Both the position numbers and the translations under genes were made by a program. Of a stretch of DNA of 64,000 nt, positions 7,118-64,000 are shown piece after piece. The DNA is taken from positions 144,869 through 208,868 of the forward strand of contig JAHPZH010000008.1 in the NCBI GenBank assembly GCA_019058315.1, in the 5' to 3' direction. The notes under the pieces were generated by a model. That model was not told the DNA's origin, did not search any database, and saw nothing but the letters and a program-made list of their open reading frames with translations. Each line of letters starts with the position of its first letter. The stretch's first letter is position 1. The stretch comes from Candidatus Helarchaeota archaeon (lineage in GTDB: Archaea; Asgardarchaeota; Lokiarchaeia; Helarchaeales; RDOG01).

Positions 7118-8215
7118 ATGGAATTGAATGAAAAAACTCCGAAACCAATAGTTAGAATTAAAGCTATGGATACTGCAAGAGGTATCGCGACTTGGTTATT
7201 GATGCCGGCACATTTTTCTCACTGGTATCTAAAAATTATCCCTAATCCTAGCTGGATGCAATATCTTTTTCGTTCAATTTTAGGTACAGCTTTTCAATAT
7301 GTCTTTGTTACATTACCTGGAATGGCTGTAACATTGCAGTTATATATTAGTAGAAATAGAGGAATTGATGAAAACCAATTAAAGGTTTCCATAATAAAAA
7401 GAGGATTGATATTAATTATCATACAATTTATATGTAATTTCTTCTCATATCAACCATTTTTTACTTTTAATTGGTTTATACTATCTTTTATAGGTTTATC
7501 GATAATACTTTCTTACTTCTTTACAGGTACTTCTGAAAAATTAAGGATTATTCTTATTTTAATAATTATAATTTTATCACCAATTTTGAAATTTATTTTC
7601 TGGAATTTCTATGTATTAACAGCTTTTCTATCAAATGCATGGTCTATTGAGATTTTTCTTAATAAAATGTGTTTTGAAGTAAATTTTCCCTTATTTCCAT
7701 ATCTTGCATTACCTATTTTTGGAACTTTATTTGCAGAAAAAATGATTAAAGCCATAGAAAGTGAGAATCAGATGAAGTTCATAAAAAATTCATTGATTAT
7801 AGGTGGAATATTAATTATGTTTTATATATTTACACTTAATTTTGATTATATTCTAAATTTTCCACATATTGCCTTTTATAGCTTACCTACTCGCCAGGAA
7901 GTACTTTATTCCTTTGGAGTAGTTATGGTTGTTATAGCTTTATTATTTTGGATTCAGGATATTAAGGGAAAGAATTGGAAAATATTTAGACCTTTTGAAA
8001 TTTATGGGGCTATATCTTTGACTGTATTTGTGACACATTTTTATTTATTTCCTCCTCTTTTAGAATTATTGTACGATCCATTACAAAACTTAAGTGAATT
8101 TACTGTTTTTCAAATTTGCTCATTTTTTTGGGCAATATATTGGATCTATGGCGTAATTTGGCGCAGACATCAAAGAAAATATAGTCTAGAATGGGTGCTA
8201 AGACGGTTATCATAA
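7118..8215 (+). CDS. DUF1624 / heparan-alpha-glucosaminide N-acetyltransferase-like membrane acyltransferase
   Basis: RIKAMDTARGIA...M..H, KRGL, FPLFPY, G.ISLT.F.TH and LEW.LRR motifs. Confidence 0.8.
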   Translation: MELNEKTPKPIVRIKAMDTARGIATWLLMPAHFSHWYLKIIPNPSWMQYLFRSILGTAFQYVFVTLPGMAVTLQLYISRNRGIDENQLKVSIIKRGLILIIIQFICNFFSYQPFFTFNWFILSFIGLSIILSYFFTGTSEKLRIILILIIIILSPILKFIFWNFYVLTAFLSNAWSIEIFLNKMCFEVNFPLFPYLALPIFGTLFAEKMIKAIESENQMKFIKNSLIIGGILIMFYIFTLNFDYILNFPHIAFYSLPTRQEVLYSFGVVMVVIALLFWIQDIKGKNWKIFRPFEIYGAISLTVFVTHFYLFPPLLELLYDPLQNLSEFTVFQICSFFWAIYWIYGVIWRRHQRKYSLEWVLRRLS

Positions 8216-8289
8216 GTTAAATTCTAAAAAAAATAAATATTAGATAATTTAATTTTAATGGATTCTGATAATAAATTTCAAAGATCTAT

Positions 8290-9447
8290 TTGGTTATTTT
8301 CTTGAGTACAAAGGCAAATCAATTTAAAACTGAAAAAAAAGGAGTTTCCACTAATAGAGTAAAAGCTCTAGATACAGCAAGAGGTTATGCTACAATTATG
8401 ATGGTAATAGGTCATTATATTCAATGGTACTTGAAATCTATTATCCCAGCGTCATTTATACAAAACATTTCTTCTCCATCAATTATTCATTATATTTTTG
8501 TTCCATTGCTAGGTATTTCAGCGCAAAATCTCTTTGTAACAATACCGGCCATGGGGGTCATCTTCCAGCGAAATTTGTATAAACAAAGAAATATGGATGA
8601 GAATTTATTAAGAAAATCGGTATTGAAAAGAGGGTTATTGTTAATTTTAGTACAATTTTTTTGTAATGTTATTTTTTCAGATCCTGGATATACTTGGGCT
8701 TGGTTTATTCTTTCTTTTATTGGAGTATCAATAATAGTTGTGTATTTTATCTCGAAATATTCACCTTACATAAGAATCATAATTGTAATCGCTATTATTA
8801 TGTTATCTCCATTTCTGAAATATTATTTCTTTTCGGCGTTTCTTTCATTATTTTTTTATAAAAATGCATGGTCTATTGAAATATTTATTTATAAAATGAC
8901 TTTACAAGTGGTTTTTCCTATATTTCCTAGTATAGTTTATCCGATAATTGGAACAATTTATGCAGAAAAAATAATTGAAGCAAAAGAAAATAATACCCAA
9001 TTTGAATTAGTTAGAAACTCGTTAATATGTGGAATTATTCTAATTTCAGCATTTTTCTTATTAGGAAATATTTATGCATTAGTGAATTATCCAGATTTTT
9101 GGCTCAATTTGCCATCAAGAGTCGACGTATTATATGTTTTTGGAACTAATTTGGTTATCTTATCCATTTTCTATTGGATCCAAGATTGGCAGGAAAAGTC
9201 TTTGAAGATTTTTGAGCCATTTAGAGTATTTGGAGCAATTTCCCTTACTGTATTTATAACACACTTTTATTTATTTCCGATATTTTTTGAACGAATTTTA
9301 TACAAAGGAGCACGTCAAAGTACAGATTTATACACAATTATGCAATTTTCATTAGCATTGATTATTTTATATTATATTTATGGGCTTTATATATTACGAA
9401 ATGACAGAAAATATAGTGTTGAATGGTTATTAAGACGTTTTATTTAG
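8290..9447 (+). CDS. DUF1624 / HGSNAT-like membrane acyltransferase, tandem paralogue
   Basis: Same motifs as 7118..8215 (RVKALDTARG, KRGLLL, FPIFP, GAISLTVFITHFYLFP, EWLLRR). Confidence 0.8.
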   Translation: MVIFLSTKANQFKTEKKGVSTNRVKALDTARGYATIMMVIGHYIQWYLKSIIPASFIQNISSPSIIHYIFVPLLGISAQNLFVTIPAMGVIFQRNLYKQRNMDENLLRKSVLKRGLLLILVQFFCNVIFSDPGYTWAWFILSFIGVSIIVVYFISKYSPYIRIIIVIAIIMLSPFLKYYFFSAFLSLFFYKNAWSIEIFIYKMTLQVVFPIFPSIVYPIIGTIYAEKIIEAKENNTQFELVRNSLICGIILISAFFLLGNIYALVNYPDFWLNLPSRVDVLYVFGTNLVILSIFYWIQDWQEKSLKIFEPFRVFGAISLTVFITHFYLFPIFFERILYKGARQSTDLYTIMQFSLALIILYYIYGLYILRNDRKYSVEWLLRRFI

Positions 9448-45119: not shown

Positions 45120-46136
45120 TTAACCCAACTTATCTTTAAGAGCCTCATCTATACTAGCTAATCGATCTGAAATGGTATCTTCCTTTTTCTTATCTTTCTT
45201 CTTCCCTTTTTTCTTATCCTTCTTCTTTTCAATTTCTTGGGTTGGTGGATTTGGTCTAGCACTTGGTGGAGCACTTGGTGGACCTCTAGGTGGACCAGTA
45301 CTTGGTGGACCTCTAGGTGGACCACCACCTGATGGTACATTGCCCCCTAGTTGCTTTTGGAATTTATCGTCTAATAATTTATTCATTTTCTTGGTTAAAC
45401 CTCCGTCAATTGGCTTAGCTGCTCGTGGTTGATGAATTTTAGGAACATAATCTTTTTGAATAGGTCCCATCCCACCTCCACCACCCATTGGACCTACTGT
45501 TCCTGAGCGTTTTCCCAGTTTAGATTTAATTTCTGACATCATCGCCATACGAACGCTCATACCACCCATAGGGGCAGGCCCTCTTGGAGCAGGTGAACTA
45601 ATTGAAGCAGATTTAAAAGAGGATGGTTTGAGTAAATTTTCTTCTACCACAGCTCCTTCTGGTCTGGGAGGAGTTGGAGGTATCCCAACCACTGGAGCTG
45701 CGGGAGCAACAGTCACTGTTTTTTGAAAATCTTCCCATTGTGTTAAAAGTTTCTGGATTACTGATTCAAAATCAACAATTTTTGACCCCATTGAAGTAAT
45801 TTGATTTCGCAAATCTTGTTCATAAGCTGGATTCATTGACCCAGTAGAAGATCCTTGTTGTTGAAGAGATTGAATTTGGAATTCTACTAATTTTTTAAAT
45901 CTAGTTTCCAAATCCCCAACTTTTGAAACGACATCATTCAACTGATCAAACATATATCGAACATATTCATTAATTGTCATTGCATTCTCTTCTAACCTTT
46001 CGGTATAATGTAAAATTGTTTCAATAGATCGGGCTAAAATGATAATTTTATCAGCATCATGTCTATAGGTTGCAATAACATCTAATAGAGAGGGTTCTTC
46101 CTCCTCTTCCACTTCTTCATATTCTTCGTTTTCCAT
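45120..46136 (-). CDS. Coiled-coil + Pro/Gly-rich protein with WH2/EVH2-like short helices
   Basis: Acidic N-terminus, heptads to ~aa140, PPTPPRP, RMAMMSEIKSKLGKR, GGLTKKMNKLL, GPPRGPP repeats and poly-K; AGGTGA SD. Confidence 0.8.
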   Translation of the reverse strand: MENEEYEEVEEEEEPSLLDVIATYRHDADKIIILARSIETILHYTERLEENAMTINEYVRYMFDQLNDVVSKVGDLETRFKKLVEFQIQSLQQQGSSTGSMNPAYEQDLRNQITSMGSKIVDFESVIQKLLTQWEDFQKTVTVAPAAPVVGIPPTPPRPEGAVVEENLLKPSSFKSASISSPAPRGPAPMGGMSVRMAMMSEIKSKLGKRSGTVGPMGGGGGMGPIQKDYVPKIHQPRAAKPIDGGLTKKMNKLLDDKFQKQLGGNVPSGGGPPRGPPSTGPPRGPPSAPPSARPNPPTQEIEKKKDKKKGKKKDKKKEDTISDRLASIDEALKDKLG

Positions 46137-50889: not shown

Positions 50890-51648
50890 TTATGTATTTT
50901 GTGATATATTAGCCGAAATTTCATTAACTATCTTATTATATTTATTAACAGTCTCATAATCTTCTAATTCCGTACTAATTTCAATTACTTTTTTATAAAG
51001 TTCTATTGCTTTATCGAATTTTTTAGCTTTCCTTTCCAAATCTGCAAAAATTACTAATTTTTGTCGCTCCTGTATTTTTTTTATGTGTTCTTGATTGAGA
51101 TCTGTATCTTCAGTAGGTTCACCTTGTATAATATTAAGCAGAATTCTCTCAACATCATAAAATATTTCTACAATATTGGAAGGATTTGCCGAATTCCAAT
51201 TCGTAAGAAGAGGAATTTTTGTCTCTAAGGGTAAAATTGAGATTTTTTTTCTAATTATTTCGGGATCTATAAGTTTGGGTTTACCCGGATAATTTGAGAA
51301 ATCAATATCAAAAATGAAGTGATCATCAAGACTGGCTGATATATAGACTTTTGCACGTGAAATTTTTTCTAGAAAATCTGTTTGAAATTCATACATTAAC
51401 TTATTTGCTTGTTCAGCGATTCCAGCATCTATTTTTTGCTCAGGTGTACCTTTATCTTTGTATTGAGAAATCTTATCTAATATCCCGCGAAGTATATTTT
51501 CTAAAATATCTTTTTTTTCCCTAAATTTATCTAATGTGATTGTTCCTTTTTGAAGATCTGCCTTTAAAGAATTAACTTCTCCTATTATGGCTTTTACTCT
51601 TTGCTTCAATTCTGTAATTGATTCTGTGGCAGATTCTTCTGAAGACAT
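50890..51648 (-). CDS. Helical hairpin (steadiness-box/SHOCT-like) + UEV/UBC-like domain + TPR/MIT-like helices
   Basis: LQKGTITLDKF; F.FDIDFSNYP.KPKL and LLTNWN...P.NIVEI (E2-fold, no Cys anywhere in the protein); FDKAIELYKK. Confidence 0.65.
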   Translation of the reverse strand: MSSEESATESITELKQRVKAIIGEVNSLKADLQKGTITLDKFREKKDILENILRGILDKISQYKDKGTPEQKIDAGIAEQANKLMYEFQTDFLEKISRAKVYISASLDDHFIFDIDFSNYPGKPKLIDPEIIRKKISILPLETKIPLLTNWNSANPSNIVEIFYDVERILLNIIQGEPTEDTDLNQEHIKKIQERQKLVIFADLERKAKKFDKAIELYKKVIEISTELEDYETVNKYNKIVNEISANISQNT

Positions 51649-51672: not shown

Positions 51673-52716
51673 TCATTCACGAATTAATGTTTTGCTAGCC
51701 AATTTTTTAAAACCTTCAACATTCATAAAAATAGGGTCTTTTGGAATAATAATCTTATCAAGATCTTCAATGATATTTTCTTCAAGAATATTAAGTTCAA
51801 TTTCTTTCCAAAATATATTTGTTCCTTCTCCGGTTATAATATAATGTTCAATTTGAGCATCATAAGGTAAATTTGATAATAGAACTTTTAGACTATCAAC
51901 AATTATTCGACTTATTTCACGGATAAAAAACTCTTTAGAATCAGTTATATCGTAGATTTTTCCAGCAACATTTACTTGATTGCGGTTTTGTTCTATATTT
52001 GGTAGAAGGTCGAAAGGACTTATAATTTGGTTTGTCGCTTTTTGAAGCACGAGAGCAATTTTGTTAGCTAAAACAGCAAGTGAAGCATCCATCAAGTTTC
52101 CAGAAGCAAGGCGCATTGGCTTTCCTCTATAAAAAGTCAGTATTTCAGTCAAATAATCTAAAGAAACTACTACTGCGTCAGATGCTATCTGTTCCTGGGA
52201 TTCTGAGATTACCTGGTAGTAACTTCCATAGGCTTCTGGCATGACTAAAGTTTTAAGAATATTAATCTTAAGTTTTTTATCTTCTGAAGTGGCTTCGTTC
52301 CTAACGTATAAATCGTAGGTCCCTTTTAATGAACCACTAATTTGTTTCATTAGATCTATATTTGTTGAAATCGGAACACCAGTTGCTATAACAATTTGGT
52401 CCTCATTTTTTATTGAAGTTAACGCGAGTACCGCTTTAATTAAGCGAAAAACATCATCTAATTTTTCTACTTTACCTTTTTCAACAATTAGCCTCTTTAA
52501 TTCACTCTGGAGTCGTGCTAATTCTCCAATGTAAAAAGACTGTTCCCCTTCAAATAAAATCAAATTATCCTTTAATTCTTTTTTGGCTGAAACACCACTC
52601 CAACCAGGATTTGGATTCCCTATAATGCTGGGAATCGAGAATTTTTCTTCCCCACATGAAATTTTTATATTTCCACCGATATCAATGCCTATTGGAATAG
52701 TAATTCTTATCACCAA
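51673..52716 (-). CDS. ParM/StbA-like actin-fold protein with degenerate nucleotide-binding loops
   Basis: GIDIG, IPSIIG.PNPGW, YIGELA, ATGVP, MPEAYG, IITGEG and NVEGF; phosphate-2 reads VVVSLDYLTE. Confidence 0.85.
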   Translation of the reverse strand: MVIRITIPIGIDIGGNIKISCGEEKFSIPSIIGNPNPGWSGVSAKKELKDNLILFEGEQSFYIGELARLQSELKRLIVEKGKVEKLDDVFRLIKAVLALTSIKNEDQIVIATGVPISTNIDLMKQISGSLKGTYDLYVRNEATSEDKKLKINILKTLVMPEAYGSYYQVISESQEQIASDAVVVSLDYLTEILTFYRGKPMRLASGNLMDASLAVLANKIALVLQKATNQIISPFDLLPNIEQNRNQVNVAGKIYDITDSKEFFIREISRIIVDSLKVLLSNLPYDAQIEHYIITGEGTNIFWKEIELNILEENIIEDLDKIIIPKDPIFMNVEGFKKLASKTLIRE

Positions 52717-52995
52717 AAATCGTATTTTTATTCTAAATAATATAATATGTAGTTCATAAAATTTCTAAATCTCATTAATTTGTATAATTTTAATTTTTTT
52801 TAACTAAAAGAGATTTAATTTATACTCTTTTTTTATGAAAGTGATACTACTCATTACCTCATTGAAAATATTTTTCTTCTATTCAAGGTTAATATTTTAT
52901 TAATTTTAGTTAAATAATCAAGTTAATTAAAATAGAGATTATATAAAATAAATCATATAATTAAAGTTTATTATAAAATTTAATGAAGTGAGATT

Positions 52996-54015
52996 ATGAC
53001 AACACACGTTGGAATTGATCTTGGGACGAGTACGATTAAGATCAGTTGTGGTGATACAAAAATCCTCATACCAAGCATCATTGGAGAACCTAATCCTGGT
53101 TGGACAGGAATGAGTAGTGACAAAACACTCGAAAATAATTTAGTTTTAATTGAGGGCAATAAGGAATGGTATGTTGGTGAATTAGCAAGGCTACAAAGCG
53201 AAGTACGTTACGCATTAGCTAGTGAAGGACAAATGAAAAGCGCAGAAAATACTTTTATTGCAGTAAAAGCAGCTCTATCTCTTTTAATGGATAATCCCGA
53301 AGACGACTTTGTTCTTGCGACAGGCGTACCCGTGGCTACTGGAGCAGAAGTAATGAAGAATTTAAGCCGAATGATGAAGGGGGATTTAAAAATAAACGTC
53401 AGAAATGATAGTACTAGTGAGTTGTTCGATTATAAAGCAAATGTCCAGAAAACACTCGTAATGCCAGAACCTTATGGTACATATGTTAAAATTCTTAAAG
53501 AGAAAGGTGAAGAATCAGCAGTTGATACAGTAATCATAGATATCGGACATGGGTCAACAGATATTCTAACAATGTACCAAGGACGCCCCATGAGAACCGC
53601 TTCAGGGAGTTTAATAGAAGCTACAGATACTTTGACTAGTCGAATGGCAAAAGCATTGCAAGATAAGACAGGTGCGATCATAAAACCCTTTGATTTAATG
53701 TCAACCATAAGAAAAGGAAGAGATCAAGTCATGATCGGTGGTCAGTACTATAGTATAAAAGAAATAAAAAATTATTACAGCGATCAAATTGCAAAAATTA
53801 TCATTGATGAAGTAATGCGTCTAATAGCTACCTTGCCACCTGATGCTTTTGTTGAATATTATATCATTACCGGTGGTGGAGCCCATAGTTTCGGAGAACA
53901 AATACGTAAGCAAATAATAGCAAGTAAATTAGTGGCAGAAGGTGACAAAGCCGTCATACCAAGTAATCCTGTACTATCAAATGCAGAAGGATTCGAATTA
54001 ATCGCTCAAAGATAA
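52996..54015 (+). CDS. ParM/StbA-like actin-fold ATPase (intact motifs)
   Basis: GIDLGTSTIK, YVGELA, TGVPV, MPEPYG, IIDIGHGSTD, ITGGGA and SNAEGF motifs. Confidence 0.92.
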   Translation: MTTHVGIDLGTSTIKISCGDTKILIPSIIGEPNPGWTGMSSDKTLENNLVLIEGNKEWYVGELARLQSEVRYALASEGQMKSAENTFIAVKAALSLLMDNPEDDFVLATGVPVATGAEVMKNLSRMMKGDLKINVRNDSTSELFDYKANVQKTLVMPEPYGTYVKILKEKGEESAVDTVIIDIGHGSTDILTMYQGRPMRTASGSLIEATDTLTSRMAKALQDKTGAIIKPFDLMSTIRKGRDQVMIGGQYYSIKEIKNYYSDQIAKIIIDEVMRLIATLPPDAFVEYYIITGGGAHSFGEQIRKQIIASKLVAEGDKAVIPSNPVLSNAEGFELIAQR

Positions 54016-54116: not shown

Positions 54117-55301
54117 ATGACTGAGAAAGATGAAAAAGAAGTTTCGGAATTGCAGAATGAGATTGAGAACGTTCTTGATGAACTCTCGAATTTAGAAGTG
54201 CAATTCACAGAAATTTTAAAACCAAGAGTTGACTCTACTCAAGCCCCAGTAGATACTGGTTACCTTATGGCTGTTCGAAGGTTTCAAAACGGAATGCGAG
54301 TTTCTCTTTTAAATGGAGCTGAGACTGGTAATAAAGAGACATTTCTTGAAGGTTTCAGATTCTATGAAGGTGCTTTAATCCTCTTAAAATCGCATAATGA
54401 CTCGAATGAAATTCAACAATGCATTAACGAATTAATCCAAATTCTCTTGAAAATTATTTCAAAAGCAAAACCTAAAGCAGAGGAAAATGCTCCTTATGGA
54501 CCATTCTTTTTGCGAAAATCTTGTCAATATATAGCTAATGTTTATGAATCCAGTGGAAATTTCGAAGTCGGGATGAAATTTCATGATCGAGCTGCAAATC
54601 TCTCAACAGGACTTGAAAAAGAACTTGAATTTCTTCAAAAACTAATAAATGCTCTTTTATGTAATAAAATTGAAGTTGTAAATCACACTATACAAATGTT
54701 CAAAATCAAGCATGTTACTAAAATGGCTACTCTATTAGCCAAAGGTTTTACTGAAAACAATCAACAAAAAGTCCAAAGTGCCCAGAGTTTATTAGAAACT
54801 CTTAGTGTTCAAAGAAAAATGTCTATAAATCATATTCTAAGTCTTATTGAAAAATTAACTCAAACTATGCAATCTAAAAAACCAGTTAAAGGGGAAGCTA
54901 AACCTGTAAGTCAGGTTCAACGTATTGCGGCCCCAACTCAATCTCTCCATCTTTCTAATGATGCAATTAGTGAATTACGAACAATACTCACTGAAGGTAT
55001 TCAACAATTAAAATCTGCTAAAGGAGGGGCTTCGGGTGATGCACCTTTAATTGACACCTCTTCTATCGTCTCTGAAATTAAAAGTATGATTTCTCAAGAG
55101 ATTAAATCTATATCTTCTGAAATTGTATCACAACTACTTAACAAGATGCCTGCTGGACTCCCAGCTTCACCTAGAGCTCATAGTGGGGGAACAATTTCTG
55201 ATGATGTTCCAGATATCCAGGTTGTGGCTGCCGCACCTGGAGAAAAACAGGCTCGTCCAAAATTGGATGATATGATAGATTCTATTGTTGTTTGTGAGTA
55301 A
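54117..55301 (+). CDS. TPR/alpha-SNAP-like solenoid + short coiled coils + conserved-looking C-terminal peptide
   Basis: Helical repeats (IANVYESSGNFEVGMKFHDRAA), low-complexity linkers, IVSEIKSMISQEIKSISSEIVSQLL and tail RPKLDDMIDSIVVCE. Confidence 0.7.
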   Translation: MTEKDEKEVSELQNEIENVLDELSNLEVQFTEILKPRVDSTQAPVDTGYLMAVRRFQNGMRVSLLNGAETGNKETFLEGFRFYEGALILLKSHNDSNEIQQCINELIQILLKIISKAKPKAEENAPYGPFFLRKSCQYIANVYESSGNFEVGMKFHDRAANLSTGLEKELEFLQKLINALLCNKIEVVNHTIQMFKIKHVTKMATLLAKGFTENNQQKVQSAQSLLETLSVQRKMSINHILSLIEKLTQTMQSKKPVKGEAKPVSQVQRIAAPTQSLHLSNDAISELRTILTEGIQQLKSAKGGASGDAPLIDTSSIVSEIKSMISQEIKSISSEIVSQLLNKMPAGLPASPRAHSGGTISDDVPDIQVVAAAPGEKQARPKLDDMIDSIVVCE

Positions 55302-59426: not shown

Positions 59427-62400
59427 TTACTTGTTTTTTGCATAGAGTGCTAATGCAATAATACCTATTACAGCTAATACTGGTCCTGATAGAGTTGCAT
59501 ACCACATAGGATTCATATATTGGAGTGAAAGCAGTGTGTTAATACCACCAGGGACTAAAAGAAATAGAAATATGTTAATTGCACCAAATAACAATAAGAA
59601 TAATCCGTGAATCCATGAAGGTCCTTTCTCGCCTCTTTCTCTCAAGCGTTTTCTAAGTGCTTCTTCTCGTAAAGTAGCTTTTGTCTGAGCTGTGCCAGTA
59701 GTAGCGACAAATCTTTTCCATTTTTTGGTAGTTTCTTGTTCGTGGCGTCGACTTGAAATCAACGAAGCTGCACCAATAACTGCTGCTCCTACCATAGTTC
59801 CGAATAGGATTAGCATATTAATTCCGATTTCTTCTGGAACGACGACTGAAACATATCGTTCTGAAATAATGCTGTTCCCTGCTGCATCTGTCACGTTGAA
59901 ATAGTAAGTTATAACAGTTCCTGCTGGGAATGGTGGAAAGATTGTACGGTATGGACTACCTTTAGTCATCCTAGTTTTAGCCCAAGGTAGACCTGTTGAG
60001 AACCACACCGCGACTTCACTAATAGGTGCTCCAAATCCTTCATCGGCAAGGTCGATTTCTAGAATTAAACTATCTCCAGGTAACAAGATAAATGGATTTC
60101 GACTAAATCTTATTGCACTAATGTCTGGTGCTGTGGTATCATTAACGTAGAACATAAATTGGATTGTTGAATTAATTCGTCCTGGAGTATCCCTTGCTAT
60201 TACCCAGAAGAATACAAATACATCATAGTCCAAAGTACCCGGGATAGCACCTGAAAATGTGGTACTTGATTCCCTTGTCATGGTAATATTGAATACTGTC
60301 CCATTGCCACCTAATATAAAGTATAAGATAAATGCTCTAGCGTTTGGATCACTGTCTATTATCGTGACATTAATCGTGTAGTTTAGTCCTGCTTCTGCAT
60401 CTACAATTGCAACATCTACGAATATTTGAGGAGTATCAAAGTCAACAACAAATGATACTGTTGCAGTTGCATTTTGAGTTGCATTTTGATCTTTAACTGT
60501 AATTGTTATTGTATATAATCCACCAGGGATGTAGGTTTTGTTTGTAAATTCATAATTACCCCAAGGTTGATTATAAGGTCTCATAGATGAATTGGTAAAA
60601 TCGAAAAGATCTTCTCTACTTATTTTTATGGATTGAATATCTGTTCCTGTGCCGTTCACAAATCCACCTATTCTGATAGCATTACCAGTATAGATATAAT
60701 CACCATCATTTGGATAATCTATAGTTATAGTAGGAGGCGTCGAATCTGCTGCAGGTAAGCTTACATCAATATCACGGGTAATATTTCTCCAATTACCTAT
60801 AGTGTCTTGCATGGCTATCTGGTAGGTGTAAGTACCGTTTACTATAGGTATCCATGAATTATTATAATATGTATCGCCACCTATGTTTTGCATCGTGTAG
60901 CTGGACCCGTTAATCTCAAATAATACTAGGTTTACTCCGGATGGATCAGTTACATTAATCCAAATTTCTAAGGCAGTTCCATTCTCGATTGGATCTGCAC
61001 TTTCTATCGGCTCTGAATAACTCGGTCCATTGGTATCTACCACCGTCACAGTTACGTTATCCGATGCCGAGTTGCCCGATGTGTCGTTCACGCCACACAT
61101 ATACTCATATGTGCCGATGCCAAGTGCAGGAAGGGTATACGTTACGTTGGTCCCGACAGACCAGGTACCGTCAGCTAGATAGGTGCCAATAAGAGTGATG
61201 TTATACTCATTAGGAGCTCCATCATTCCATGCCCATTCTAAGGTATATCCAGCAACTGCTCCCACCTCTAACGTAATGTCCGGTGCACCCGCAATTAAAT
61301 TCGGGCTCGTGGTGTCTACCACCGTCACCGTCACGTTATCCGATGCCCAGTGACCTACAGTATCGTTCACGCCACACATATAATTGTATACGCCCAATCC
61401 CAATGCAGGTAGGGTATACGTTACGTTAGTTCCGACTGACCAAGTGCCGTCAGCTAAATAAGTGCCAATAAGGGTGATGTTATACTCATTAGGAGCTGCA
61501 TCATTCCAGGCCCATTCTAAGCTATAGCCCGCAACTGCTCCCACCTCTAACGTGATGTCCGGTGCACCCGCAATTAAATTCGGGCTCGTGGTGTCTACCA
61601 CCGTCACCGTCACGCTATCCGATGCCCAGTGACCCGCAGTATCGTTCACGCCGCACACATAAACATAGGTGCCAACTCCCAATGCAGGTAGGGTATATGT
61701 TATATTGGTACCGACAGACCAGGTGCCGTCAGCTAGATAAGTGCCAATAAGGGTGATGTTATACTCATTTGGATTTGTATCAGTCCAATCCCATTCTAAG
61801 GTGTATCCAGCAACTGCTCCCACCTCTAACGTGATGTCCGGTGCACCTGCAAGTAAAGTCGGAGCTATGTCTACTGGAGTGACCGTCACAGTCACATTAT
61901 CCGATGCCCAGTGACCCGCACTGTCGTTCACACCGCACATATACTCATATGTACCGATGCCCAGTGCAGGTAGGGTATAGGTTATATTGGTACCGACAGA
62001 CCAGGTGCCGTCAGCTAGATAAGTGCCAATAAGAGTGATGTTATACTCATTTGGATTTGTATCAGTCCAAGCCCATTCTAAGGTGTATCCAGCAACTGAT
62101 CCCACCTCTAACGTGATGTCCGGTGCACCCGCTATTAAACTCGGAGGAGTGTCTACAGGATTAACTGTCACCGTCACGTTATCCCACGCCCAGTTGCCTG
62201 AGGTATCGTTCACACCGCACATATACTCATATGTACCGATGCCCAGTGCAGGTAGGGTATAGGTTATATTGGTACCGACAGACCAGGTGCCGTCAGCTAG
62301 ATAAGTGCCAATAAGAGTGATGTTATACTCGTTTGGTAATAAATCATTCCAGGCCCATTCTAAGCTATAACCCGCAACAGAGCCCACAATCAACGTGATA

Positions 62401-64000
62401 TCTGGTGCGCCTGCAACTAAATTCGGGCTCGTGGTGTCTACCACCGTCACTGTCACGCTATCCGATGCCCAGTTGCCTGAGGTATCGTTCACGCCGCATA
62501 CATAAACATAAGTGCCAAGGCCTAGTGCTGGTAGGGTATACGTTACATTAGTACCGACTGACCAGGTGCCATCAGCTAAATAACTGGCTCCAAGGGTGAT
62601 ATTATACTCGTTAGGAGCTAAATCAGTCCAGGCCCATTCCAGGTCGTAACCCGCAACAGCACCCAGCTCTAACGTGATGTCTGGTGCACCCGCCACTAAA
62701 CTCGGTGGTGTACTTTCCAGCACCGTCACCGTCACGTTGTCAAATGCCGTGTTGCCCAAAGTGTCGTTCACGCCGCACATATACACATATACACCAAATG
62801 TCAACGCCGGTAGGGTGTAGGTTATATTGGTACCGACTGACCAGCTGCCGTCTGCCAGATAAGTGCCAACAAGGGTAATATTATACTCATTAGGATCTGA
62901 ATCAGTCCAAGCCCATTCTAAGGCATATCCAGCAACCGATCCTTCCACTAACGTGATGTCAGGTGCCCCTGCCACGATACTTGGAGCTCCAGTAGATATT
63001 ACCGTCACCGTTACATTGTCAGATGCCCAGTTGCCCGATGTGTCGTTCACGCCACACATATACTCGTAGATGCCAGCTGTTAATACAGGTAGGGTATAGG
63101 TTACATTAGTTCCGACAGACCAGGTGCCGTCAGCTAGATAAGTGTTAATAAGAGTGATATTATACTCGTTAGGATCTAAATCGTTCCAGGCCCATTCTAA
63201 GCTATAACCCGCAACAGAGCCCTCATATAAGGTAATGTCTGGTGCGCCTGCTACAAGGGAAGGTGCAGTATGATCTTCTACCGTCACGGTCACGCTATCA
63301 ACTGCCCAGTTGCCCGACGTATCGTTCACGCCGCACACATAAACATAAGTACCAAGGCCTAATGCTGGAAGGGTATACGTTACATTAGTGCCGACTGACC
63401 AGGTGCCGTCAGCTAAATAACTGGCTCCAAGAGTGATATTATACTCGTTAGGATCTAAATCAGTCCAGGCCCATTCTAAGCTATAACCCGCAACAGCGCC
63501 TAGCTCTAACGTTATATCTGGTGCGCCTGCTACAAGGGAAGGTGCAGTATGATCTTCTACCGTCACGGTCACACTATCAACTGCCCAGTTGCCCGACGTA
63601 TCGTTCACGCCGCACACATAAATATAAGTGCCAAGGCCTAATGCAGGAAGGGTATAAGTTATGTTGGTGCCAACTGACCAGGTGCCGTCAGCTAAATAAC
63701 TGGCTCCAAGGGTGATATTATATTCGTTAGGATCCAAATCAGTCCATGCCCATTCCAGGTCGTAACCTGCAACAGCACCAAGTTCTAACGTGATATCTGG
63801 TGCGCCCGCTACAAGGGAAGGTGCAGTATGATCTTCCACCGTCACGGTCACGCTATCAACTGCCCAGTTGCCCGACGTATCGTTCACGCCGCATACATAA
63901 ACATAAGTGCCAAGACCAAGTGCCGGTAGGGTATACGTTACATTAGTGCCAACTGACCAGGTGCCATCAGCTAAATAACTGGCTCCAAGAGTGATATTAT
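59427..64000 (-). CDS. Giant Ig-like tandem-repeat surface protein (5' end beyond window) with C-terminal TM helices
   Basis: At least 10 complete 93-94-aa units (D.T.P...AGAPDITL...LEWAW.D..PNEYNITL..YLADGTWSVGTN.TYTLP...Y.CGVND..GN), then further DxxPP-type Ig-like domains, TM, basic loop and two more TM. Frame open to the window end. Confidence 0.9.
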   Translation of the reverse strand, partial: NITLGASYLADGTWSVGTNVTYTLPALGLGTYVYVCGVNDTSGNWAVDSVTVTVEDHTAPSLVAGAPDITLELGAVAGYDLEWAWTDLDPNEYNITLGASYLADGTWSVGTNITYTLPALGLGTYIYVCGVNDTSGNWAVDSVTVTVEDHTAPSLVAGAPDITLELGAVAGYSLEWAWTDLDPNEYNITLGASYLADGTWSVGTNVTYTLPALGLGTYVYVCGVNDTSGNWAVDSVTVTVEDHTAPSLVAGAPDITLYEGSVAGYSLEWAWNDLDPNEYNITLINTYLADGTWSVGTNVTYTLPVLTAGIYEYMCGVNDTSGNWASDNVTVTVISTGAPSIVAGAPDITLVEGSVAGYALEWAWTDSDPNEYNITLVGTYLADGSWSVGTNITYTLPALTFGVYVYMCGVNDTLGNTAFDNVTVTVLESTPPSLVAGAPDITLELGAVAGYDLEWAWTDLAPNEYNITLGASYLADGTWSVGTNVTYTLPALGLGTYVYVCGVNDTSGNWASDSVTVTVVDTTSPNLVAGAPDITLIVGSVAGYSLEWAWNDLLPNEYNITLIGTYLADGTWSVGTNITYTLPALGIGTYEYMCGVNDTSGNWAWDNVTVTVNPVDTPPSLIAGAPDITLEVGSVAGYTLEWAWTDTNPNEYNITLIGTYLADGTWSVGTNITYTLPALGIGTYEYMCGVNDSAGHWASDNVTVTVTPVDIAPTLLAGAPDITLEVGAVAGYTLEWDWTDTNPNEYNITLIGTYLADGTWSVGTNITYTLPALGVGTYVYVCGVNDTAGHWASDSVTVTVVDTTSPNLIAGAPDITLEVGAVAGYSLEWAWNDAAPNEYNITLIGTYLADGTWSVGTNVTYTLPALGLGVYNYMCGVNDTVGHWASDNVTVTVVDTTSPNLIAGAPDITLEVGAVAGYTLEWAWNDGAPNEYNITLIGTYLADGTWSVGTNVTYTLPALGIGTYEYMCGVNDTSGNSASDNVTVTVVDTNGPSYSEPIESADPIENGTALEIWINVTDPSGVNLVLFEINGSSYTMQNIGGDTYYNNSWIPIVNGTYTYQIAMQDTIGNWRNITRDIDVSLPAADSTPPTITIDYPNDGDYIYTGNAIRIGGFVNGTGTDIQSIKISREDLFDFTNSSMRPYNQPWGNYEFTNKTYIPGGLYTITITVKDQNATQNATATVSFVVDFDTPQIFVDVAIVDAEAGLNYTINVTIIDSDPNARAFILYFILGGNGTVFNITMTRESSTTFSGAIPGTLDYDVFVFFWVIARDTPGRINSTIQFMFYVNDTTAPDISAIRFSRNPFILLPGDSLILEIDLADEGFGAPISEVAVWFSTGLPWAKTRMTKGSPYRTIFPPFPAGTVITYYFNVTDAAGNSIISERYVSVVVPEEIGINMLILFGTMVGAAVIGAASLISSRRHEQETTKKWKRFVATTGTAQTKATLREEALRKRLRERGEKGPSWIHGLFLLLFGAINIFLFLLVPGGINTLLSLQYMNPMWYATLSGPVLAVIGIIALALYAKNK
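61040..64000. repeat. Array of ~279-bp near-identical coding repeats
   Basis: Unit spacing of 279 nt (e.g. gtcacggtca at 63562 and 63841); visibly more GC-rich than the rest of the window. Confidence 0.95.

Follow-up and report, generated by a model that had tools for sequence, protein, structure and literature searches.

A conserved actin-fold paralogue of the ParM/Alp type with a rebuilt nucleotide pocket, predicted not to hydrolyse ATP, in a four-gene cassette of a Helarchaeota genome

In a stretch of 64,000 nucleotides from Candidatus Helarchaeota archaeon (GenBank assembly GCA_019058315.1, contig JAHPZH010000008.1, positions 144,869 to 208,868 of the forward strand; this whole stretch is hereafter called the window, and coordinates refer to it unless a locus is named), two genes for actin-like proteins are transcribed divergently, and both are intact and of full length upon inspection of their open reading frames (ORFs). 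Gene A (51673..52716, minus strand; 347 amino acids if read from TTG) encodes an actin-fold protein of the ParM/Alp type whose nucleotide pocket is remodelled, while gene B (52996..54015, plus strand; 339 amino acids) encodes the canonical paralogue, in which every nucleotide motif is intact. On the strength of the sequence comparisons presented here we consider it likely that A is a non-hydrolysing paralogue; that it is, moreover, a conserved and probably nucleotide-free partner of B is the interpretation toward which we lean, with less assurance. A would then be an actin-fold pseudo-ATPase paralogue, in this case in the ParM/Alp branch and within a conserved four-gene cassette, present in a patchy subset of one Asgard class.

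The two proteins align over their whole length (43% identity in 340 columns; BLASTP E = 1e-105), and B matches all three of the canonical ASKHA motifs (DxGxxxxK, DxGxxT.D and the adenosine GG), whereas A does not. The phosphate-1 loop, which in the translation of B reads GIDLGTSTIK (53011..53040, plus strand), is GIDIGGNIK in A (52663..52689, minus strand), one residue shorter and without the Thr, with Asp12, Gly14 and Lys18 retained. The phosphate-2 segment of B, VIIDIGHGSTDI (53530..53565, plus strand; core IIDIGHGSTD), is remodelled in A into the hairpin VVVSLDYLTEI (52141..52173, minus strand; aligned core VVSLDY-LTE): from B to A, Asp182 is changed to Ser and Gly184 to Asp, Gly186 is deleted, and the following Ser and Asp become Leu and Glu. 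The adenosine motif of B, ITGGGAHSFG (53866..53895, plus strand; TGGGA), corresponds to ITGEGTNIFW in A (51808..51837, minus strand), with the second Gly changed to Glu and a later Gly of the family changed to Trp. An earlier note on this DNA had listed these altered phosphate-1, phosphate-2 and adenosine motifs by comparison with 52996..54015, and had remarked that A is nevertheless of full length and retains the sequence blocks PNPGW, GELARLQSE, PMR.ASG and PFDL; translation and alignment bear out each of these points, the four blocks being present in both A and B. The note took these blocks for putative surface parts kept as filament interfaces, which they may be; a GELA.RQ-like sequence is also carried by distant ParMs.

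The weight of these replacements can be judged from 128 relatives, the nearest full-length representatives outside clade A and its sister clade C (described below) that were recovered by a hidden Markov model (HMM) search carried out exhaustively over 1.8 billion cluster representatives. Position 182 of phosphate-2, which is Ser in A, is Asp in 126 of the 128; Gly184, Asp in A, is Gly in all 128; and the adenosine Gly294, Glu in A, is Gly in 127. At the catalytic position 122 of the 128 have Glu or Gln, and A retains its Glu161 there, in the connect-1 motif MPE (52234..52242, minus strand). There are 11 columns that are conserved at a level of at least 90% in both clades but with different residues, and 9 of them fall among the 31 motif columns of the 339 in the alignment (hypergeometric p = 7e-9). 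The residues of the pocket that A keeps at 90% or more are Asp12, Gly14, Lys18, Glu161, Thr190 of phosphate-2 and Gly296, the first adenosine Gly. The pocket, as read from these columns, is thus remodelled rather than uniformly destroyed or erased, and the 'selectively destroyed' loops of the earlier note have to be reworded accordingly: the selectivity is real, with 9 of the 11 differing sites in the motifs, but destruction is too strong a term for loops and a catalytic region that retain Asp12, Gly14, Lys18 and Glu161. We also considered Trp303 as a general blocker of the adenine pocket, an idea that was dropped, since Gly holds the equivalent place in 90% or more of the B type but in only 36 of the 128 wider relatives.

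The altered motifs are not a peculiarity of one genome. A word-indexed search returned 66 relatives, which split cleanly into an A type (39 full-length sequences, from Asgard genomes of the Loki/Helarchaeota type, and a few fragments) and a B type (24 sequences, all with canonical motifs). The patterns [ST]LD[YLI]-.TE and GE[GA] are found in all 39 full-length A-type sequences. Of the 35 A-type sequences that cover phosphate-1, 34 show GIDIG-G.xK, and the remaining one has Ser in place of the second Gly. Each of the new residues Ser185, Asp187, Leu189, Glu191 and Glu297 is conserved in at least 90% of the A-type sequences. For the three closest pairs of A, the ratio of non-synonymous to synonymous substitution rates (dN/dS, Nei-Gojobori method, NG86) is 0.042, 0.084 and 0.119; for B, in the same genome pair and over the half of the gene that was available, it is 0.058. 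Mean column conservation is 0.70 for A and 0.75 for B. A is therefore under purifying selection about as strong as that acting on B.

These values bear directly on the possibility that A is merely a decaying duplicate, a pseudogene, or a chance ORF. Decay would be in keeping with the loss of canonical motifs and with the faster divergence of the A protein, about 1.5-2x that of B (49-71% identity for A and 68-86% for B in the same genome pairs). It is contradicted by the dN/dS range of 0.04-0.12, by the intact orthologues found in about 40 clusters, none of which has an internal stop, by the near-invariance of the altered motifs themselves, and by the confident fold described below, so that we reject it as hardly credible. 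The earlier note had taken A to be selected rather than a pseudogene, and had proposed dN/dS and motif conservation among orthologues as a check: the outcome is the one it anticipated, with constrained sequences, motifs frozen in 39 of them, and none of the random decay that would have told against selection. The loss of near-invariant residues together with purifying selection is the combination expected of a pseudoenzyme, which A is accordingly predicted to be.

How such a pocket might work can be outlined as follows. After duplication of a canonical B-like gene the pocket of A would have been rebuilt, with loss of ATP hydrolysis and probably also of ATP binding. Both phosphate hairpins are one residue shorter, with an Asp and two bulky hydrophobic residues at the tip of phosphate-2, and a Glu would be placed in the adenosine loop where, according to the ASKHA motifs reportedly described by Bork, Sander and Valencia in 1992, the glycine backbone is said to face the phosphates. 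Given the roles attributed to the ASKHA motifs, these changes together should abolish hydrolysis and probably nucleotide binding. Asp187, at the phosphate-2 tip, and Glu297, in the adenosine loop, would occupy the phosphate site or exert repulsion there, and their carboxylates may even replace the phosphates by pairing with the retained Lys18, an arrangement that would fix A in a single conformation. A would serve as a non-enzymatic partner of the ATPase B, with a role like that of a cap or nucleator, or of the subunit that does not hydrolyse in a heterodimer of paralogues.

The same pocket can be interpreted in a different way, namely that A still binds ATP, though without hydrolysing it, or else has some other nucleotide, a metal or a small molecule as its ligand, and serves as a slow switch or sensor. 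The six canonical residues kept at 90% or more would find a natural explanation in this case, as would the conservation of the new pocket residues at a level of at least 90%, which is what a new specific pocket would show, and the retention of full-length phosphate loops in the sister clade C. Such a ligand would have to be accommodated, however, in a site in which replacements affect three positions where the 128 relatives show no or hardly any variation, in which each of the two phosphate hairpins is short of one residue, and in which an acidic side chain appears, by inference from the ASKHA motif, where the glycine backbone of the adenosine loop faces the phosphates. Overall we regard a ligand-binding A as rather unlikely.

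The direction of change can be recognized in a maximum likelihood tree (LG+C20, 44 rows), in which A is monophyletic (support 100/99), clade C is likewise recovered (100/100), and the two are sisters (99/98). Together they adjoin a grade of canonical B-type sequences, and the outgroups are all canonical: on this phylogeny the motif changes of A are derived and the B-like motifs ancestral. Clade C occurs in genomes of family f7, within the same class, that have a B orthologue as well (L025:2204-3427(-), L027:2052-3155(-), L028:2241-3386(-), and P0069); its genes are unlinked from that orthologue, and no homologue of either of the cassette genes X and Y, discussed below, was seen near them. Its phosphate loops are of full length (GIDFGSSLIK and TDIGFGSAE), VYG takes the place of MPE, with Gly for Glu at the catalytic position, and the adenosine motif is TGDG. 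Common to A and C are an acidic adenosine residue, the pair FW and a one-residue insertion (in C, TGDG...FW). Because the acidic residue is shared, it was probably already present in the A/C ancestor, and the daughter lineages would then have lost different further elements.

Residues for hydrolysis have also been lost in family f18 of the phylum, where each genome has three B-type copies and the third shows MPV for MPE and Asn for the last Asp of phosphate-2 (L039:3363-4469(-); also L044-L046 and L048). These changes were present in 5 of 5 genomes examined, and this loss of the Glu is independent of that in C. Recurrent loss of hydrolysis residues in extra copies, followed each time by strict conservation, is the strongest comparative argument for a use of these proteins that does not involve ATP turnover. 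A homologue of the f18 third copy at G252:C275:2501-3511 has one in-frame TAG, which could come from recoding or from a sequencing error, or else mark the copy as broken.

The proposal that A is a partner of B, rather than only a non-hydrolysing protein, draws on the context of the two genes. A cassette with the order Y-A | B-X, in which A and B lie head to head and Y and X are the conserved genes downstream of A and of B, respectively, is present in the window and at six further loci (L016, L017, L029-L032). Y accompanies A in every cassette and does so also where A stands apart from B; X accompanies B in all cassettes as well as in G002. B is present in each of the 10 genomes that have A, and in 9 of these the two genes are adjacent and divergent. 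As a partner of B, A would bring its own adaptor Y to the assembly, and B would bring X. Structure prediction of the A+B complex gives weak support for a direct contact, with an ipSAE (an interface score) of 0.58 versus 0.00 for the highest-scoring of 3 controls; the contacts agree between runs at a level of at least 97%, with pLDDT (predicted local distance difference test) values of at least 85 for the partner. Of 80 solved complexes, 58 attained the mark used for this score, as did 2 of 110 mismatched pairs, and values of 0.60 or under account for 7 of those 80 solved complexes and for both of the passing mismatches.

A stronger version of the proposal would have A and B as an obligate hetero-oligomeric actin-like polymer confined to the Loki/Helarchaeota-type Asgard archaea, with B hydrolysing and A nucleotide-free, by analogy with the alpha and beta subunits of tubulin, and with each subunit recruiting its own adaptor, Y for A and X for B. 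We put this forward as a doubtful extension.

Several considerations weigh against A as a nucleotide-free partner of B. The A-Y and B-X modules can be unlinked, since they are found at separate loci in G002 and L019, with Y still 1.5 kb downstream of A and with B keeping its X. The distribution is patchy, as the family is present in 14 of 161 genomes of the class. The co-occurrence of A and B is equally expected from a plain history of duplication. The A+B score lies in a band in which such predictions would be more often wrong than right, unless the pairing is likely beforehand; and since solved filaments of ParM and of actin exist, the complex may pass because of likeness of fold rather than binding. 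Finally, the retention of Asp12, Gly14, Lys18, Glu161, Thr190 and Gly296 may indicate that A still binds a metal or some ligand.

Some of these points would fit better a scenario in which A and Y form a module independent of B, that is, a scaffold or polymer that does not depend on nucleotide and has an adaptor of its own, the adjacency to B reflecting shared regulation or the history of the duplication. The separation of A-Y from B-X in G002 and L019 and the weakness of the A+B score are in line with such independence, as is the fact that each actin-like gene has a partner of its own, the two partners showing no detectable relationship to each other (hhalign probability 3%). Set against it is the observation that in 10 genomes A is never found without B and in 9 of them lies head to head with it, and we therefore consider independence improbable. 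We also looked at X and Y as possible paralogues of each other, which we reject: the hhalign hit at 3% is only a 25-column match at the N-terminus, and BLAST gives E = 0.54.

The genome containing the window (5.79 Mb in 12 contigs) has only two copies of the family, A and B, and the single-contig genomes of the class have neither. Across the phylum, 68 of the 400 genomes searched have a B-type gene. Most of them have one canonical copy, and B-type genes without A or C are common. As a side observation, the solitary canonical B-type gene of other Asgard contigs lies within about 1.3 kb of a gene for a Ras/Arf/Roc-type small GTPase in 3 of 3 loci examined (L034:4097-4855; L035:2872-3537 and 7947-8618; L036:4253-4777).

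The assignment of A and B to the ParM/Alp superfamily rests on profile and structure comparisons. Both match the Pfam profile ALP_N (PF17989), the N-terminal domain of ParM/Alp actin-like proteins, with 41.3 bits for A and 64.8 bits for B at a cutoff of 26.3. MreB-like_C, a Pfam domain built on Ta0583 of Thermoplasma, is matched by B (46.8 bits) but not by A, which falls under the threshold because the motifs of its domain II are altered. The Pfam profile Actin (PF00022) gives no match for A and 18.5 bits for B, under the cutoff of 27; the NCBIfam ParM profile (PRK13917) gives 33.6 bits for A and 48 bits for B against a cutoff of 417, and the FcmB profile, at 28.5 against a cutoff of 300, is likewise far from being reached. 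With scores so far under the cutoffs, membership of A or B in the NCBIfam families ParM, FcmB, PRTRC_D, MamK and BeeR was rejected. In the HMM search the family appears small and isolated, with 11 representatives at E = 1e-30 or better, followed by a drop to the general ParM/Alp background. Homologues are named 'hypothetical protein' or 'ParM/StbA family protein' in the databases, and the closest are labelled Helarchaeota, Lokiarchaeota and Promethearchaeota, together with one metagenome-assembled genome of Hodarchaeota. A and B form a distinct Asgard branch of the superfamily.

The AlphaFold2 (AF2) model of A, built from the family alignment, has a pLDDT of 92.3 and a pTM (predicted template modelling score) of 0.90. 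Its top Foldseek matches are 8x1i, 2fsj, 3js6, 9rmi and 6ixw (E = 1e-20 to 1e-17), with template modelling (TM) scores of 0.72-0.80 for Dh-cParM1, Ta0583, CorM and pCBH ParM; pSK41 ParM is also among the best folds in the PDB, and eukaryotic actins rank below the ParM-type folds, with TM scores of 0.63-0.68. The PDB sequence matches of B are Dh-cParM1, pCBH ParM, CorM and Ta0583, and its orthologues show 68-85% identity. The label 'Arp-like' given to A by the earlier note can consequently be kept only as an analogy: the family is ALP_N, the nearest folds are of the ParM type, and no match to the Actin profile was found for A.

As an analogy it is still instructive. Arp7 and Arp9 of SWI/SNF and the capping Arp11 of dynactin have reduced or absent ATPase activity and serve as actin-fold structural or capping subunits; the Arps belong to a different branch of the superfamily, and nothing points to their common descent with A. 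In alpha/beta-tubulin and BtubA/B the nucleotide of one subunit is not hydrolysed and the pair is the unit of assembly, alpha-tubulin itself binding GTP. The fold in these cases is that of tubulin/FtsZ, unlike that of A and B, and the likeness is again one of analogy only.

Among prokaryotic actins the best matches to A and B in both sequence and fold are Dh-cParM1 (PDB 8x1i; PMC12270681) and FcmB/FcmC of Nostoc (PMC12645912), a system that is probably identical with CorM/CorR of Anabaena (PDB 9rmi; PMC12645912). Dh-cParM1 and FcmB, domesticated actins and the closest characterised analogues of A and B, are like these chromosomal ParM-derived actin folds that adjoin the gene of a partner; Dh-cParM1 hydrolyses nucleotide (PMC12270681), and FcmB forms filaments in vivo and has a role in cell morphology rather than in plasmid segregation (PMC12645912). 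Unlike A, both have canonical motifs, and they are single actins rather than a pair made of a canonical and a remodelled protein. X and Y, for their part, have no similarity to ParR-type partners, as no Pfam match was obtained for them. Ta0583 (PDB 2fsj, 2fsn) is an archaeal protein with a ParM-like fold (TM 0.74-0.82 to the model of A), but it has canonical motifs and is seen with ADP bound in entry 2fsn. Two actin-like paralogues per cell, the second one divergent, are known from Magnetospirillum, in the form of MamK and MamK-like (PMC2818848), and MamK-like is reported to form filaments (PMC2818848); in contrast to A and B, their genes are neither adjacent nor divergent, and there is no comparable remodelling of three motifs. 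The ParMRC systems of plasmid segregation comprise a ParR-type adaptor and a parC array, whereas the A/B locus has neither and its context is chromosomal. A description of the A/B pair was not found in full-text literature searches.

In this perspective the locus reveals a second, ParM-type actin family in Asgard genomes, one which has repeatedly yielded conserved paralogues for which a loss of ATP hydrolysis is predicted, and in which A has rebuilt all three motifs. If A is indeed a non-enzymatic subunit of a B polymer, this would be a prokaryotic division of labour of the kind seen in eukaryotic Arp complexes and in tubulin heterodimers. If A and B form a hetero-oligomer, the cassette would represent a new archaeal cytoskeletal system of four components, and the split between catalytic and non-catalytic proteins would have evolved repeatedly (in A, in C and in the f18 third copy) within a single family of prokaryotic actins.

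Gene Y (50890..51648, minus strand) encodes a coiled coil, a central domain resembling a ubiquitin-conjugating (UBC) fold and a helical C-terminus. Its model (pLDDT 83.6) shows an N-terminal coiled coil, a central alpha/beta domain and a C-terminal helical part similar to tetratricopeptide repeats (TPRs), and its best PDB folds are E2/UBC domains, at a weak level (E = 0.04, TMt 0.57). Y has no cysteine at all, in the central domain or elsewhere, and this model suggests that it could be a UEV/RWD-like, non-catalytic form of the UBC fold (UEV, ubiquitin E2 variant). Gene X (54117..55301, plus strand) encodes a helical protein with TPR-like features, a disordered linker and an invariant C-terminal peptide; the TPR-like features are to be taken only as a lead, as their atlas scores are 0.86 or below (under 0.9). 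The peptide, RPKLDDM.D...V.E, follows the variable linker in 7 of 7 orthologues and is a candidate B-binding tail. No Pfam family was found for X or Y, nor any ParR-like or other DNA-binding match.

Some details of the locus deserve mention. The start of A is probably the GTG at 52713, which would give 346 amino acids, as gene callers place the starts of orthologues one codon later than the TTG. The spacer between A and B (52717..52995) is a divergent, AT-rich region of 279 bp and the presumed site of both promoters; in orthologous cassettes it is about 150 bp long. A parC-like centromere in this spacer was considered and rejected, as it contains no direct repeats of the parC kind, only low-complexity, AT-rich inverted matches. 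There are no integrase or plasmid genes beside the cassette in the window, L016 or L017, and on either side there are ordinary chromosomal genes, not the same ones in each genome; in these three places an origin from a mobile element gets no support from the flanks, mobility being neither demonstrated nor excluded. The public sequencing runs that contain DNA of the locus are sediment and soil metagenomes and none is of RNA, which says nothing on expression either way.

Two other genes of the window, which is AT-rich with about 30% GC, can be pointed out in passing. At 45120-46136 (minus strand), 5 kb from the cassette, there is a protein of 338 amino acids that combines a coiled coil and an acidic N-terminus with long tracts rich in Pro and Gly. 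At 59427-63887 (minus strand) a surface protein of 1486 amino acids is made up of many near-identical repeats of ~100 amino acids, rich in N-x-S/T sequons, and the GC content in this gene is locally 0.43-0.49, compared to about 0.30 in the rest of the window.

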